Below, one piece after another: positions 9,174 to 12,540 of a stretch of 21,010 nt of DNA. The notes under the pieces are model-generated. The model did no database searches. It was not told the DNA's origin and worked only from the letters and a program-made list of their open reading frames with translations. This DNA comes from a virus. The DNA lies in the UHGV virus genome UHGV-1822439. One strand, given 5' to 3'. Positions within the stretch are counted from its first letter, which is position 1; every line of letters starts with the position of its first letter. Both the position numbers and the translations under genes were made by a program.

Positions 9174-9878
9174 TTAACCTACCTTGCTGGAACCAGGAAA
9201 ACAGGAGATCGGCAGTGCTGCCGGACGCGGAAAACGCAAACGGCAACCGCTAAGGCGGTGGCTGCATTTGTCTAACGTTGGGTCACTTGTTGGTGTATCT
9301 TTATCAGTTGCGACCGGGCCGCCAGAATACATGCACCCGTCGCCTCTGTATTGCCACTGACAAACGTCAGCAAGGATGGTGCGCCCTGGGATAACGGCTT
9401 TATCTGCATCAATTGGCGTTGACAATTCATATTGCACCTGATCCGCTGTTTCTTCGCTCATTGCTTCAACGACGTAAAAAGATACAGCCTCAATAGATGG
9501 ATCTGCGTCTGGATTGCCGTTAGGGAAGTTAACGGCGTCCAGGTATTTAACCTCCACCTGGCGGCGCGTAACCTTCATTCCTCGCAGGTCGTTGAAATCG
9601 TTATTCATCCCTGTGATTAGCCCGCCGATATTGGCTACAACCATTTGAGGCCGCGAATAAACGCCCTCGTTTTTCATTTCGAAGCCCGTCGTCTCGATCG
9701 GGTAGCTGTTGTAAGCTACTCCCTTCCAGATAACCTGGCCGTAATAGCCGTTCGCGCCGGAATGGAAGCGGATAACCTCGCCTCCCAGGGGAGTAAGGTC
9801 CAGTTCAAATAAGTCAATGACCGCGCCAACTCCGGCATCGACGGAATCAATAATCATCTCTCTCGGAATATTGCGCAT
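9174..9878 (-). CDS. L: Minor tail protein L (234 aa)
   Basis: Similarity to lambda L (RRQVEVKYLDAVNF vs RRKVYARFLDAVNF; C-terminal Cys cluster C..GCMY..KCSHRLSGC). SD AAGGTGAG 5 nt before ATG at 9878. Confidence 0.85.
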   Translation of the reverse strand: MRNIPREMIIDSVDAGVGAVIDLFELDLTPLGGEVIRFHSGANGYYGQVIWKGVAYNSYPIETTGFEMKNEGVYSRPQMVVANIGGLITGMNNDFNDLRGMKVTRRQVEVKYLDAVNFPNGNPDADPSIEAVSFYVVEAMSEETADQVQYELSTPIDADKAVIPGRTILADVCQWQYRGDGCMYSGGPVATDKDTPTSDPTLDKCSHRLSGCRLRFPRPAALPISCFPGSSKVG

Positions 9879-9891
9879 TTTCTCACCTTGT

Positions 9892-9930
9892 CATTTTGTG
9901 ATATGCGTCACGCTAAATCACACCAAAATG
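9892..9930. promoter_or_regulatory. Junction inverted-repeat element, site C
   Basis: CATTTTGTGAT (9892-9902) and ATCACAccAAAATG (9917-9930) form an imperfect inverted repeat, 14 nt upstream of the L start on the minus strand and just before the plus-strand cassette. Confidence 0.5.
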
Positions 9931-9932
9931 GA

Positions 9933-9961
9933 TTGTTCATGGTTTTTACAATATGTATATT
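9933..9961 (+). promoter_or_regulatory. Candidate sigma70 promoter for the L/M-junction cassette
   Basis: TTGTTC (9933-9938), 17-nt spacer, TATATT (9956-9961). Weak -35; by eye only. Confidence 0.3.
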
Positions 9962-10007
9962 TTACTCAAACGAAGGGGAAGTTAACAAAATGGCGCGGAG
10001 GTGCGTT

Positions 10008-10196
10008 ATGACTGAAAAGCCATGGAAGTTGACGGTATTCATGACAGACGGTAGGGAAAAGGTTATCGCCCTGTATGACGACGAGGGGGAAGCATTGGTT
10101 GACGCGCTTTTACTTGCTGAGGATGACCGCCTTTTGGGATACCAGATCGAACCTGTCAAATATGAGGCTAACAAAAATGAAAAAATACAGTCTTGA
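10008..10196 (+). CDS. Small acidic protein (62 aa), first gene of the L/M-junction cassette
   Basis: SD GGAGG (9997-10001) 6 nt before ATG 10008. MTEKPWKLTVFMTDGREKVIALYDDEGEALVDALLLAEDD...PVKYEAN; paralogous to the N-terminus of the next gene. An alternative start at ATG 9990 is possible. Confidence 0.55.
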   Translation: MTEKPWKLTVFMTDGREKVIALYDDEGEALVDALLLAEDDRLLGYQIEPVKYEANKNEKIQS

Positions 10197-10524
10197 TGTG
10201 TGGTTAAGTGGTAGCAAGGAGTGTTTCGGATTATTTGATAGCGAAGAAGTAGCCCTGGAAGAAGGCAGGATTCTTGAATGTAGTTTAGGCCATCCAGTGA
10301 AATATGCTGCTAATCCGGTACAGATAGTTGATGAGGTGGAAGATATGAACCCGAAAGATATTAATGTTAACTTCAATGTTAATTTTGCAGACTCTATGGA
10401 TCAGTCTTGCCCTGGTGAAATACACGCAAAAGGTTTCCCGGCTGACGATCCAGAAGCAAAACGCGAATACGAAAAAGCTGCGAAAGACTTCTGCATGGAT
10501 AATCTTGCAGCATTCGATAAATAA
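10177..10524 (+). CDS. Acidic protein (115 aa), tandem paralog of the preceding gene with a C-terminal extension
   Basis: ATG 10177 overlaps the preceding gene by 20 nt. N-terminus SLDVWLSGSKECFGLFDSEEVAL...GHPVKYAAN aligns with ...LTVFMTDGREKVIALYDDEGEAL...GYQIEPVKYEAN; strongly acidic. A GTG at 10198 is an alternative start. Confidence 0.55.
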   Translation: MKKYSLDVWLSGSKECFGLFDSEEVALEEGRILECSLGHPVKYAANPVQIVDEVEDMNPKDINVNFNVNFADSMDQSCPGEIHAKGFPADDPEAKREYEKAAKDFCMDNLAAFDK

Positions 10525-10533
10525 GGGGGATAC

Positions 10534-10782
10534 ATGGGGCGGCGCAATCACGGCGATTATGTGTACACGCTGAAACAGGCCGCCCGCCTCGTTGGTTATC
10601 ATGAACACGAATTTATTGATTTGCTGATTGAGCGCGGGATACTGTACCAGGTCTGTTTAACGCTGTACCCGAAAGCTAAATACCTACAGGAAAAGTTATT
10701 TATCATCATGACGGATGAAAACCAGGTTAACCATTCATTCGTCACTGATAAGGGCGTTAATTATCTGCGTGATAACTTATAG
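10534..10782 (+). CDS. Small protein (82 aa), possible helix-turn-helix DNA-binding protein
   Basis: SD AAGGGGGA (10524-10530) before ATG 10534, 9 nt after the preceding stop. Segment TLKQAARLVGYHEHEFIDLLIERGIL has a helix-turn-helix-like pattern (by inspection only). Confidence 0.5.
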   Translation: MGRRNHGDYVYTLKQAARLVGYHEHEFIDLLIERGILYQVCLTLYPKAKYLQEKLFIIMTDENQVNHSFVTDKGVNYLRDNL

Positions 10783-10792
10783 GTGACAGATT

Positions 10793-10909
10793 ATGAAAAT
10801 AGAAGTTTTGGCGCTAATAATAATGGGATTGATAGTATTTGGCGTTCATGCTGTAGATCTGGACTGGAAAACGATAGCGGAAAATATAGCATTAATGGAA
10901 ATGGAATAA
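10793..10909 (+). CDS. 38-aa hydrophobic peptide (single TM or signal-peptide-like N-terminus)
   Basis: SD AGGTGA (10781-10786) before ATG 10793. MKIEVLALIIMGLIVFGVHAVDLDWKTIAENIALMEME, stop TAA followed by two more in-frame stops and a terminator. Below the ORF-track length cutoff. Confidence 0.45.
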   Translation: MKIEVLALIIMGLIVFGVHAVDLDWKTIAENIALMEME

Positions 10910-10914
10910 TAATA

Positions 10915-10940
10915 ACCCCGCTTCGCGCGGGGTCGTGTTT
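10915..10940. terminator. Intrinsic terminator closing the L/M-junction cassette (possibly bidirectional)
   Basis: Stem ACCCCGC (10915-10921) / GCGGGGT (10927-10933), loop TTCGC, then CGTGTTTAT; on the minus strand the hairpin is followed by TATTATTATT. Confidence 0.6.
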
Positions 10941-10987
10941 ATACGCCATCAACCAAAAATAAAACCCCCTTCCCTTCCCGGGATCTA

Positions 10988-11125
10988 CACCCCCACGTAC
11001 CCATCGCCAACGTCGTGAAGATACCATATATCGCCGTTGTCAGCTTTTACAGTAAGGTCGTTGATCTCATAGTCGTCAAACAATGTAAAAGCGTAAGTTT
11101 TGTCAACCACACAAGTCCCGTACAT
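10988..11125 (-). CDS. Possible small ORF (46 aa) just downstream of M
   Basis: ATG at 11125, 12 nt after the M stop, preceded by GGGGGG with about 6-nt spacing; MYGTCVVDKTYAFTLFDDYEINDLTVKADNGDIWYLHDVGDGYVGV. No family recognised. Confidence 0.3.
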
Positions 11126-11137
11126 AACAACCCCCCA

Positions 11138-11491
11138 TTAGCCAACAACTTGTTCAAACGTTGCGTTTAGCGTGTACACAGGCCCGTCTTTGGTCATGCT
11201 CCAGCTACGGCAAACGAAAAGCCTTTGCACCCCGTCGATCGATGGAGTCCAGTAAAACGCCTCGACAGCGCCGCGCGCCCTCAAAAATGCTTCGGCCTGG
11301 ATCGCCACGTTTCCACCATCACCACATCCCGCGCTACTGCCTTTGAAAACCAGGGTATAACTATCAAGCAACGTGTTAATCCCTTTCGCCTGGCGCTGTT
11401 CATAACCATCACCAAGTTTAACGACAGACACATTTGGTTCCCTGGTCACGCTGTAGCTTCTTTGCGGCGTCCATCTGAAAACTTCTGGCAT
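11138..11491 (-). CDS. M: Minor tail protein M (117 aa)
   Basis: Similarity to lambda M as recalled (FRW near N-terminus, GDGYEQR vs GDGYSQR, C-terminal FEQVVG vs FEQVVN). SD AGGGGGA before ATG 11491. Confidence 0.85.
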   Translation of the reverse strand: MPEVFRWTPQRSYSVTREPNVSVVKLGDGYEQRQAKGINTLLDSYTLVFKGSSAGCGDGGNVAIQAEAFLRARGAVEAFYWTPSIDGVQRLFVCRSWSMTKDGPVYTLNATFEQVVG

Positions 11492-11557
11492 GATTCCCCC
11501 TATAAGTTACATATTGCATACATCTTTACGCGCTTCTACGCGAAAAATGAGAAATTC

Positions 11558-11589
11558 ATCACAAGAATTATAACCAGTTTACAAAATGG
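11558..11589. promoter_or_regulatory. Junction repeat element, site D
   Basis: ATCACAAgAA (11558-11567) and TTTACAAAATGG (11578-11589): same half-site family as sites A-C, immediately upstream of the candidate promoter. Confidence 0.4.
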
Positions 11590-11590
11590 C

Positions 11591-11619
11591 TTCACATAAG
11601 GCGTGACAAGATGTATATA
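11591..11619 (+). promoter_or_regulatory. Candidate sigma70 promoter for the M/tape-measure-junction cassette
   Basis: TTCACA (11591-11596), 17-nt spacer, TATATA (11614-11619); about 40 nt upstream of the first SD. Confidence 0.45.
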
Positions 11620-11660
11620 GTAAGCAAGAAGAAAAAGCAGTACCGACAAAGGAGGCCAAT

Positions 11661-11816
11661 ATGAAGCGTTATGTAGTGGTAATGCTGAACAACGCATTCG
11701 AACAGGTGGAAGTGGCGATAGTCAAAGGCTTTGATGACGCATTCAAATACGGTCAATTCATGATGAATGCGAAGGAAAACGAGTACCGTGATTTCTTCCT
11801 GAAAGTGGTCAACTAA
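11661..11816 (+). CDS. Small protein (51 aa), first gene of the M/tape-measure-junction cassette
   Basis: Strong SD AAAGGAGG (11648-11655), 5 nt before ATG 11661; MKRYVVVMLNNAFEQVEVAIVKGFDDAFKYGQFMMNAKENEYRDFFLKVVN. Below the ORF-track cutoff. Could be the partner (antitoxin-like) of the next gene. Confidence 0.5.
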   Translation: MKRYVVVMLNNAFEQVEVAIVKGFDDAFKYGQFMMNAKENEYRDFFLKVVN

Positions 11817-11834
11817 TGGATTGTGGGGTGTGTT

Positions 11835-12089
11835 ATGAAATTGGTGGCGATTGGTAAAAACCTGAAAGCACAGAAAAACGCACAGGACCGGATCATCAAG
11901 AAAGGAAAGCAATTGCTTGATGCTTTTCTTAAAAAAGAGGCCAACCCCAAAAAATTACGCGATGGCTACGGTTATAAATTTGACATCAACCCCGATTGGC
12001 GGTTATTCAGCGAAGATTTAAAGATGTGGTTAATTATTGACCACCTGGAATATAACAGGCACTGTGGGGTGAAAGGCGCTCACAAGTGA
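11835..12089 (+). CDS. Small basic protein (84 aa), candidate RelE/ParE-superfamily-like toxin
   Basis: ATG 11835, 18 nt after the upstream stop. MKLVAIGKNLKAQKNAQDRIIKKGKQLLDAFLKKEANPKKLRDGYGYKFDINPDWRLFSEDLKMWLIIDHLEYNRH. Pattern (basic N-terminal helix, NP..KL..G, D.R, C-terminal H/Y) loosely resembles RelE/YafQ/YoeB toxins; weak, from memory. Confidence 0.3.
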   Translation: MKLVAIGKNLKAQKNAQDRIIKKGKQLLDAFLKKEANPKKLRDGYGYKFDINPDWRLFSEDLKMWLIIDHLEYNRHCGVKGAHK

Positions 12090-12120
12090 CACGGATTTGA
12101 ATGTTGCGGAGGAAAACAAA

Positions 12121-12291
12121 ATGAAAAATCCGGCAAATAAAAGCAACGTAAAACGCATGGCATGGGTGCTAAAATATATGGATAGTAAAGGGGATACATA
12201 TACATGCCCATTTTTTAGGTGTACTGACGCGGTATTTGCCAGAAGTGTACACGGAGGGAAAATTGAGAGAGGATATACAAGATTTGAGTAA
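12121..12291 (+). CDS. Small basic protein (56 aa), hypothetical
   Basis: SD GGAGG (12108-12112) 8 nt before ATG 12121; MKNPANKSNVKRMAWVLKYMDSKGDTYTCPFFRCTDAVFARSVHGGKIERGYTRFE. Confidence 0.45.
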   Translation: MKNPANKSNVKRMAWVLKYMDSKGDTYTCPFFRCTDAVFARSVHGGKIERGYTRFE

Positions 12292-12329
12292 ATTTATTCA
12301 CGAAATCAATAACATGATGAAGGTTTATA

Positions 12330-12509
12330 ATGATTATTCATGATACTGAAGAATGCAGAAGGATTGATCTTAGTATTGAAGATGACGGAAGATTATGGAT
12401 CGTTAGCGACTGCGAGATGATTGTAATAGACAAAAAGCAAGCTGACGAACTGATAAGAGCATTGCAGCTTTATGCAAACGGCGAATTTAAAAATGATGAA
12501 ATTGAATAA
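12330..12509 (+). CDS. Small acidic protein (59 aa), hypothetical
   Basis: SD GAAGG 8 nt before ATG 12330; MIIHDTEECRRIDLSIEDDGRLWIVSDCEMIVIDKKQADELIRALQLYANGEFKNDEIE; stop 12507-12509, immediately followed by a terminator. Confidence 0.45.
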   Translation: MIIHDTEECRRIDLSIEDDGRLWIVSDCEMIVIDKKQADELIRALQLYANGEFKNDEIE

Positions 12510-12513
12510 AATA

Positions 12514-12540
12514 GCCCCGGCATTGTGCCGGGGTTTTGTT
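12514..12540. terminator. Intrinsic terminator, bidirectional (closes the cassette; also follows the tape measure gene on the minus strand)
   Basis: Stem CCCCGGCA (12515-12522) / TGCCGGGG (12526-12533), loop TTG, then TTTTGTTTATTT on plus; on minus the hairpin is followed by CTATTTTATTC. Confidence 0.75.

Follow-up and report, generated by a model that had tools for sequence, protein, structure and literature searches.

The viral stretch UHGV-1822439, which comprises 21,010 nucleotides (nt) and is called the window throughout, covers the tail and head region of a temperate siphophage of the mEpimmI type, a phage group described in PMC11893012. It is approximately 85-89% identical to mEp021, mEp515, mEp010 and others. 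Over 21 kb it is 99.9% identical to a prophage adjoining zntB in Escherichia coli M15, except for an IS903B element that is present only in M15. Between the minus-strand tail genes L and M the window holds a cassette of four plus-strand genes, the first three of which encode proteins of 62, 115 and 82 amino acids (aa), the last of these with a KilAC domain. The subject of this study is the fourth and last cistron, a 38-codon open reading frame (ORF) that stops just before a terminator hairpin (Table 1). This peptide gene is real and previously uncharacterised.

Coding status of the 38-codon frame

The frame runs from an ATG at 10793 to a TAA at 10907-10909 and encodes MKIEVLALIIMGLIVFGVHAVDLDWKTIAENIALMEME. 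An original prediction, made from the sequence alone, had given exactly this peptide for 10793-10909, and the good Shine-Dalgarno (SD) sequence, the hydrophobic N-terminal segment and the acidic tail that it described are all borne out by the sequence. The SD element AGGTG overlaps the TAG stop codon (10780-10782) of the upstream KilAC-like gene, and translational coupling of the two cistrons is therefore probable. The peptide gene starts 10 nt past this stop codon, and its SD element is exposed.

The six frames of the window contain 77 listed ORFs of at least 60 aa, so that the presence of an ORF alone means little. For comparison 45 related loci, designated below by L numbers, were gathered; their sources were IMG/VR contigs, E. 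coli genomes in RefSeq and phages in GenBank. Of these loci, 41 have an open frame and represent 28 distinct nucleotide sequences; the gene is absent in L015-L017 and carries a frameshift in an A run in L021. Among the 28 distinct versions, variable sites fall predominantly on the third codon position (13, 10 and 25 at positions 1, 2 and 3, respectively). The pooled Nei-Gojobori ratio of nonsynonymous to synonymous differences per site (pN/pS) is 0.22 in the peptide frame, at a pS of 0.43, compared to 0.88-1.23 in four other frames. One antisense frame, which shares the wobble positions of the sense frame, yields 0.33. Along the peptide the ratio amounts to 0.11 for codons 2-20, 0.31 for codons 21-33 and 0.34 for the tail of the 45-aa form. 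This 45-aa allele (...NMAHAHPMSLMHINY) differs from the 38-aa allele (...NIALMEME) by an in-frame 21-nt indel. Furthermore, three different upstream contexts all retain a purine-rich GGxG ribosome-binding element 6-8 nt before the ATG. Gene callers independently predict the peptide family in 45 clusters at 90% identity, and NCBI annotates the 45-aa form in other genomes (e.g. WP_165394118.1), leaving the 38-aa form unannotated in strain M15 and the closest prophages examined. We conclude with high confidence that 10793-10909 is a protein-coding gene under purifying selection. The original prediction had named a lack of conservation in homologous cassettes as the observation that would speak against it; the comparison revealed the opposite, a frame that is conserved and selectively constrained.

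These data also bear on the view that there is no gene at all, but an ORF that arose by chance in the A/T-rich DNA separating the terminator from the KilAC-like gene, and whose conservation would stem from recency or from a role of the RNA. Such a view could draw on the lack of an NCBI annotation in M15 and the closest prophages, on the two antisense frames, which are largely open too (one of them with the ratio of 0.33), and on the loss of the start codon in seven of the 41 loci. The pS of 0.43, however, indicates that the sequences are not merely recent, and it is only in this frame that substitutions concentrate at third positions. The indel keeps the frame, the 45-aa form is annotated elsewhere, and the gene is found in four unrelated genomic contexts, always with an SD element and with its stop codon just before a terminator. 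The antisense frame with the low ratio shares the sense wobble positions, as mentioned above, and would moreover need to be read through the terminator hairpin. A chance ORF thus appears largely refuted already by the comparative data, and we consider it highly improbable.

Table 1 Features of the cassette region and its flanks (window coordinates)
Feature	Position	Strand	Description or basis
Tail gene L, left flank	9174..9878	-	annotated phage minor tail protein L
Putative cassette promoter: TTGTTC (9933-9938), 17-nt spacer, TATATT (9956-9961)	9897..9961 with palindrome	+	intergenic alignment
62-aa first cassette gene	10008..10196	+	phrog_29559, E 1.5e-45; RefSeq annotation
115-aa cassette protein	10177..10524	+	phrog_38567
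82-aa KilAC-domain gene	10534..10782	+	Pfam PF03374, E 1.3e-6; RefSeq annotation in M15
Shine-Dalgarno element AGGTG	10781..10785	+	7 nt before ATG; sequence
38-codon small-protein gene with TAA	10793..10909	+	predicted membrane helix, residues 3-22; short acidic helix, residues 25-37
TAATAATAA, stop codon and two further in-frame TAA	10907..10915	+	also A/U tract of the minus-strand terminator
Bidirectional intrinsic-terminator hairpin, stem CCCCGC/GCGGGG, loop TTCGC	10914..10934	both	consensus terminator scan, fold
Frameshifted copy of conserved 61-65-aa gene downstream of M	10939..11125	-	phrog_3249, E 1.9e-22
Tail gene M, right flank	11138..11491	-	annotated phage tail protein / minor tail protein

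Predicted membrane topology

The peptide has an apolar core, V5-V18, which comprises 14 residues in every variant and is bounded by Glu4 and His19. The uncorrected Hessa sum over 17 residues is -1.35 kcal/mol. The N-terminal flank is neutral or positive (MKIE, MRLE, MKMRIE), and the tails carry a net charge of -2 to -6 in all four variants. According to the positive-inside rule these flanks predict an orientation with the N-terminus inside and the C-terminus outside (N-in/C-out). AlphaFold, supplied with a 26-sequence alignment, returned a model with a predicted local distance difference test score (pLDDT) of 90.9, in which helices at residues 3-22 and 25-37 are separated by a break at a conserved D-x-D. 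The C-terminal part exists in three unrelated, alternative versions: an acidic tail ending in ...LMEME, a His/Met-rich tail (...MAHAHPM.LMH.N[YF]) and a second acidic tail (...EGEKDVDMEQPAVV). The low pN/pS of the hydrophobic segment (0.11, against about 0.3 in the tail) together with the three unrelated tails favours a functional helix over a disposable signal. Membrane insertion of the peptide in N-in/C-out orientation is therefore likely, as judged from its sequence. The peptide contains no cysteine and no match to the lipobox [LVI][ASTVI][GAS]C, and thus cannot be a lipoprotein.

The same segment can be read as a cleavable Sec signal, as the original prediction had suggested with a cleavage site after VHA. 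In that case residues 1-20 would serve export, signal peptidase I would cut after V-H-A, and an acidic periplasmic peptide of 18 aa (or 25 aa for the longer form) would be the active product. The motif indeed fits: Lys2 lies in the n-region, the h-region consists of the 14 apolar residues, and Gly17 (-4), Val/Ala/Ile (-3) and Ala (-1) are kept in 26 of the 28 distinct sequences, with Pro never occurring at +1. The mature peptide would begin with an acidic residue at +2 and DxDW, and signal peptides of Gram-negative bacteria typically have the total length seen here, 20 residues. The pattern of selection argues for a different role of this segment. No part of the protein is more constrained than the putative signal (pN/pS 0.11, compared to 0.31-0.34 in the part that would be mature), a situation opposite to what is usual for cleaved signal peptides. 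Glu4, Gly12 and His19 are invariant or nearly so, and Sec signals do not usually have an n-region with an invariant acidic residue. The part that would be mature consists of the three unrelated tails, and AlphaFold predicts one continuous helix across the proposed cleavage site. Thus, the predicted cleavage motif stands as a family-wide feature of the sequence, but cleavage itself is disfavoured and appears doubtful to us compared with a helix that stays in the membrane.

Cassette, putative promoter and shared terminator

L and M are adjacent genes in lambda. Among the relatives of the window the content of the cassette varies, while L and M stay fixed. The guanine plus cytosine (GC) content of the cassette is 0.40-0.44 (9950-10999), lower than the 0.49-0.54 of L and M, and its GC skew has the opposite sign. 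The cassette thus has a moron-like architecture, with a position between a pair of adjacent genes, a deviant base composition and a terminator of its own.

The 115-aa protein of the cassette is modular. Its N-terminal beta-beta-alpha-beta domain is variable and confidently predicted; the C-terminal approximately 50 residues (encoded at about 10372-10521) are nearly invariant, include two conserved Cys residues and reach a pLDDT of 45-59. This C-terminal module has the signature FADSMDQxCPGEI...FCxDNLxAFDK, the second half of which reads FCIDNLxAFDK in stand-alone ORFs, and its stand-alone version starts at an internal Met. A Foldseek search of the 115-aa protein against the PDB gave no significant match (best E 1.3), with a weak resemblance to T7 Gp2. 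The product of the 62-aa first gene resembles the N-terminal domain of the 115-aa protein by eye, and the two may be paralogous.

Several other tiny ORFs with hydrophobic products, none of them annotated, occur around the peptide gene in relatives. In L015 and L016 MCDHYILEVIIIIIGLFFILLSTM (24 aa) is found in place of the peptide gene, between the KilAC-like gene and the terminator. M(NRV)DEVIENVLVVAGAIAIVYAFLN (23-26 aa) lies just upstream of the peptide gene in L011, L013, L039, L040 and L045; over this stretch L010 and L011 show seven differences, all of them synonymous. A third such ORF, MLIDGLVMVFIIAVGMAIFYEIDSRNDK (28 aa, preceded by an SD element), is located on the minus strand after the terminator in L013.

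The intergenic region between L and the cassette was aligned for 35 distinct relatives. A promoter-like element TTGATC-17-TATATT is conserved in this alignment, with TTGTTC as the first hexamer in the window. A palindrome resembling the CRP consensus, TGTGA-N6-TCAC (TGTGATATGCGTCAC), is located at 9897-9911; it is unique in the window, where 0.07 occurrences are expected, and its half-sites are invariant among the aligned relatives, with a variable 6-nt spacer. The centre of the palindrome lies approximately 61-63 nt upstream of the inferred transcription start, a spacing found in class I CRP-dependent promoters, and the cassette may be cAMP-CRP dependent. Transcription of the cassette would then occur from its own weak, possibly CRP-assisted promoter as long as the prophage is repressed, and during lytic growth late tail transcription would overrun the cassette in antisense. 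The obvious model for such an expression pattern, by analogy, is taiEcA of phage phi80, an oppositely oriented gene inside the late operon, which the lysogen expresses and across which antiterminated late transcripts run (PMC11364771). The cassette shares with taiEcA/atiEcA the placement within, and set against, a late structural operon, and presumably the timing of its expression. It differs in its products, since TaiEcA is a 26-kDa soluble inhibitor of tail assembly without similarity to any of the cassette proteins.

At the other end of the cassette, the hairpin was scored as terminator-like on both strands by the consensus scan. It folds with -19.5 kcal/mol on the plus strand and with -16.1 kcal/mol on the minus strand (z -3.5 and -3.0, respectively, relative to shuffled sequences). 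Its stem is invariant in almost all relatives, its loop is variable, and the annotations of mEp515 and mEp021 list it as a terminator. The original prediction of three stop codons followed by a terminator was confirmed. On the minus strand the tail after the stem reads UUAUUAUUAUU / UUAUUAUUAUUC, so that the triple TAA is at the same time the A/T tract of the minus-strand terminator and, therefore, does not represent independent evidence for coding. On an unchanged palindromic stem, some relatives carry the loop TTCGC and others the reverse complement, GCGAA, which looks like an inversion of the hairpin from one lineage to another.

The terminator is common to the plus-strand cassette and to a convergent minus-strand unit composed of M and the phrog_3249 gene. 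It had also been proposed to face the transcript from the M side. This holds true with regard to its bidirectionality, but the gene that ends there in relatives is not M but the 61-65-aa gene downstream of M. The latter is intact in every other locus examined and reduced to a 46-aa remnant in the window, owing to an extra C in a run of five (10990-10994). E. coli M15 has the extra C too, which suggests either a prophage that accumulates defects or a homopolymer sequencing error. ORFs of 78-81 aa that cover the region in antisense were considered as genes and rejected, for their frame shifts between relatives, they overlap the conserved 61-aa gene out of frame, and they run through the terminator.

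Two further observations concern the surroundings of the cassette. A second low-GC (0.36-0.43) plus-strand cassette lies between M and the tape-measure gene (11592-12540), with small genes at about 11661-11816, 11835-12089 and 12330-12509. The middle one is annotated as ParE-family toxin-like in relatives, and the second cassette may represent a toxin-antitoxin pair embedded in the tail operon. The IS903B copy of M15 (L003 2723-3779, corresponding to about 2479-2487 of the window) is located at the 3' end of the distal tail/spike fibre gene.

Family distribution and candidate functions

Scans of the 38-aa and 45-aa forms against Pfam, PHROGs, NCBIfam and PADLOC revealed nothing above noise. 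When Pfam was searched at E values up to 1, the sole match was DUF6814 (E 0.05, below the cut-off of that family), and no similarity to YebO was seen. Homologues were searched with the alignment as query. An exhaustive profile search of 1.84 billion representative proteins recovered six clusters at 50% identity, none linked to a named family, and a scan of one genome per species gave 108 pattern matches, none of them a relative. By these searches the peptide belongs to a narrow orphan family that appears confined to E. coli phages.

Outside the mEpimmI cassettes the gene was found on distant contigs. In L046 (1468-1730) it stands alone between a TTGACA-17-TAATAT promoter, followed by a leader of approximately 50 nt with an SD element, and a terminator. 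In L047 and L049 a near-consensus promoter is followed by a 50-aa ORF and directly by the peptide gene, and in L048 a 65-aa ORF, a KilAC remnant and a 67-aa ORF precede it. The 50-65-aa ORFs of L047, L048 and L049 correspond to the C-terminal module of the 115-aa protein of the window (for the 50-aa protein, tblastn match to 10372-10521, E 2.5e-11). Peptide and module thus travel together, yet each also occurs alone, the peptide in L046 and the module in L015-L017. The operon of L047 has the order promoter, 50-aa protein, peptide, lipoprotein, terminator, and its lipoprotein is 87.8% identical to mEp010_116 (gp116/Lpp010), expression of which excluded mEp010, mEp044, mEp554 and lambda (PMC11893012). 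A 42-aa call upstream of Lpp010, mEp010_117, was considered as a parallel small peptide and rejected; it looks like a spurious prediction covering a promoter region.

No DNA match to L046 was obtained in phage and plasmid collections. L047 shows weak, partial similarity to rV5-like phages, with a neighbouring 101-aa protein matching at approximately 32% identity only. The distant contigs (L047 2437-3120, L049 681-1053, L046 1468-1730) derive from uncultured E. coli-associated phages and have near-consensus sigma-70 promoters and terminators around very small genes. Genes with a T5orf172 domain flank the module in L048 and L049, which suggests that the module moves with homing-endonuclease-like elements. 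From its occurrence in these contexts the peptide gene presents itself as an autonomous mobile module that has moved between unrelated phage contexts.

The original prediction had considered a small membrane toxin similar to type I toxins. A peptide of the Hok, Ldr or TisB style would depolarise the membrane in the service of prophage maintenance or of abortive infection, with antisense transcription keeping it under control. With its 38 aa, a single predicted hydrophobic helix and a short polar tail, the peptide indeed matches the description of type I toxins (PMC12648545). The whole cassette runs antisense to the late tail operon, counter-selection against a toxic product could explain why the start codon has been lost repeatedly, and relatives carry a ParE-like toxin cassette next door. 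Nevertheless, several features do not agree with a toxin. The gene is not an independent unit in the window but a coupled fourth cistron with an exposed SD element, and it has no long structured 5' untranslated region. The search for an antisense RNA gave no Rfam family within 9800-11600 at E values up to 1 and no minus-strand promoter-like site overlapping the ORF, although a novel small RNA could escape such a search. The nearest minus-strand promoter-like site (10789..10760) points away from the ORF, and such sites are about as numerous as expected by chance. Homologs in L046, L047 and L049 are placed behind near-consensus, constitutive promoters with short leaders, an arrangement that would be lethal in a lysogen if the product were an unrepressed toxin. 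Finally, the acidic tail is unlike that of most type I toxins. The likeness to Hok/Gef, Ldr, TisB, IbsC and ShoB, some of which are prophage-associated (PMC12648545), is thus restricted to small size and one hydrophobic helix. A type I toxin is not what the surroundings of the gene suggest, and we judge it to be improbable.

A membrane anchor for the cassette, also considered originally, is unlikely as well: the predicted N-in orientation leaves approximately four cytoplasmic residues, and in L046 the gene occurs without the other cassette genes. A more specific version would be a two-component device, in which the peptide acts as a membrane tether or partner that recruits the C-terminal module of the 115-aa protein. 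In every mEpimmI cassette with the peptide, the peptide gene has the module as its neighbour, and the two are neighbours again in the three unrelated contexts of L047, L048 and L049, where the module is an ORF of 50-65 aa; moreover, the isolated module is predicted to lack order over most of its length (pLDDT 45-59), which is what one would expect if it acquires its fold on a partner. On the other hand, the few cytoplasmic residues of an N-in/C-out peptide apply here too, and the module has no signal peptide. The peptide in L046 does without the module behind the same promoter and leader, just as the module does without the peptide in L015-L017. By inspection, tail type showed no covariation with the variant of the 115-aa protein or its module, or with the length of the tape-measure protein. 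We therefore regard recruitment of the module as an equally improbable function of the peptide.

The explanation that we favour, with somewhat better than even confidence as a whole, is a coding gene for an inner-membrane peptide with a role in the envelope, possibly in exclusion. A single helix of the peptide (about residues 3-22) would span the inner membrane, with Lys2 on the cytoplasmic side and the acidic tail, composed of the conserved D-x-D-W and one of the three alternative tails, in the periplasm. Helix and periplasmic tail would act at the envelope on a component of the host or of an incoming phage. Given this structure, the most likely role would be superinfection exclusion or blocking of entry in the manner of HK97 gp15, and the main alternative would be that it modulates a membrane protein of the host, as MgrB-type small proteins do (PMC12648545). 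The function is the least certain step of this explanation, and exclusion of phages by the peptide is put forward as a tentative proposal, based on analogy. It is favoured because of the gp15 precedent, the L047 operon with its Lpp010 ortholog and the use of accessory slots in the tail region for exclusion genes.

HK97 gp15 is a small inner-membrane superinfection-exclusion protein encoded by a moron of the tail operon; the prophage expresses it, and the phage itself can do without it (PMC3594210). As in this case of a YebO-like protein, the first described moron product, the peptide would be a small membrane-inserted protein from an extra, separately terminated unit in the tail operon of a temperate E. 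coli siphophage. The peptide, however, has no similarity to YebO. The gene for gp15 is located upstream of the tape-measure gene, whereas the peptide gene is the last of four, oriented against the tail genes, between L and M, and its involvement in exclusion is a proposal. The exclusion lipoproteins Cor (phi80, N15, mEp167), Llp (T5) and Lpp021/Lpp010 (mEpimmI phages) are likewise small envelope-targeted accessory products from the tail region of temperate coliphages, and in L047 an Lpp010 ortholog is co-transcribed with a homolog of the peptide. A cor gene is present in the window itself (2558-2941), and Lpp genes adjoin J in relatives. In contrast to these lipoproteins, the peptide lacks a cysteine and a lipobox and is predicted to reside in the inner membrane, not at an outer-membrane receptor. 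Chromosomally encoded small membrane proteins (PMC12648545) resemble the peptide in their length below 50 aa, their single transmembrane helix and their short periplasmic tail with conserved residues; they have no catalytic potential, and function is expected to depend on contacts of helix with helix and of the tail. They are, however, widely conserved and have known partners, whereas the peptide family is phage-borne, restricted to E. coli phages, equipped with three interchangeable tails and without a known partner.

Several points weigh against this explanation. The gene is dispensable: its start codon is changed to ATA in one clade (L007, L008, L034-L037) and to GTA in L012, L021 has the frameshift in the A run, and approximately ten E. 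coli genomes, three of which (L015-L017) were inspected directly, appear to be without the gene (about 44% query coverage). The hydrophobic core comprises only 14 residues, and the V-H-A motif fits a signal peptidase I site equally well. The -35 element of the window is degraded (TTGTTC, three of six positions matching), leaving the plus-strand promoter below the threshold of the consensus scan, and with its frameshifted neighbour gene the prophage may be decaying. The family has no sequence relationship to gp15/YebO, to Cor or to any PADLOC model, and the link to exclusion derives from one metagenomic contig and from analogy.

A more far-reaching idea is that the peptide stands for an undescribed class of phage-borne inner-membrane factors, whose nearly invariant helix of 20 residues would dock on an inner-membrane protein of the host through which phage DNA enters, or on a sensor or a transporter, and whose swappable periplasmic tails would set specificity. 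With the FADSMDQxCPGEI module it would form a portable two-gene exclusion device, used by temperate and other coliphages. We consider this idea speculative and rather unlikely. If it were true, the tail could choose which tail-tip or tape-measure protein is blocked, and the His/Met-rich tail could bind a metal ion.

Moron-encoded small membrane proteins are already known, and no concept is overturned by our findings. Small phage genes are systematically missed, and the peptide family falls outside the models of Pfam, PHROG, NCBIfam and PADLOC. The locus provides a useful training example for the annotation of small ORFs in cassettes of phage tail regions, with clear purifying selection on a frame of 38 codons in E. 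coli prophages that form a common group in the human gut. The peptide is thereby a cheap and well-defined candidate for a new inner-membrane peptide that may act in superinfection exclusion or in modulation of the host.

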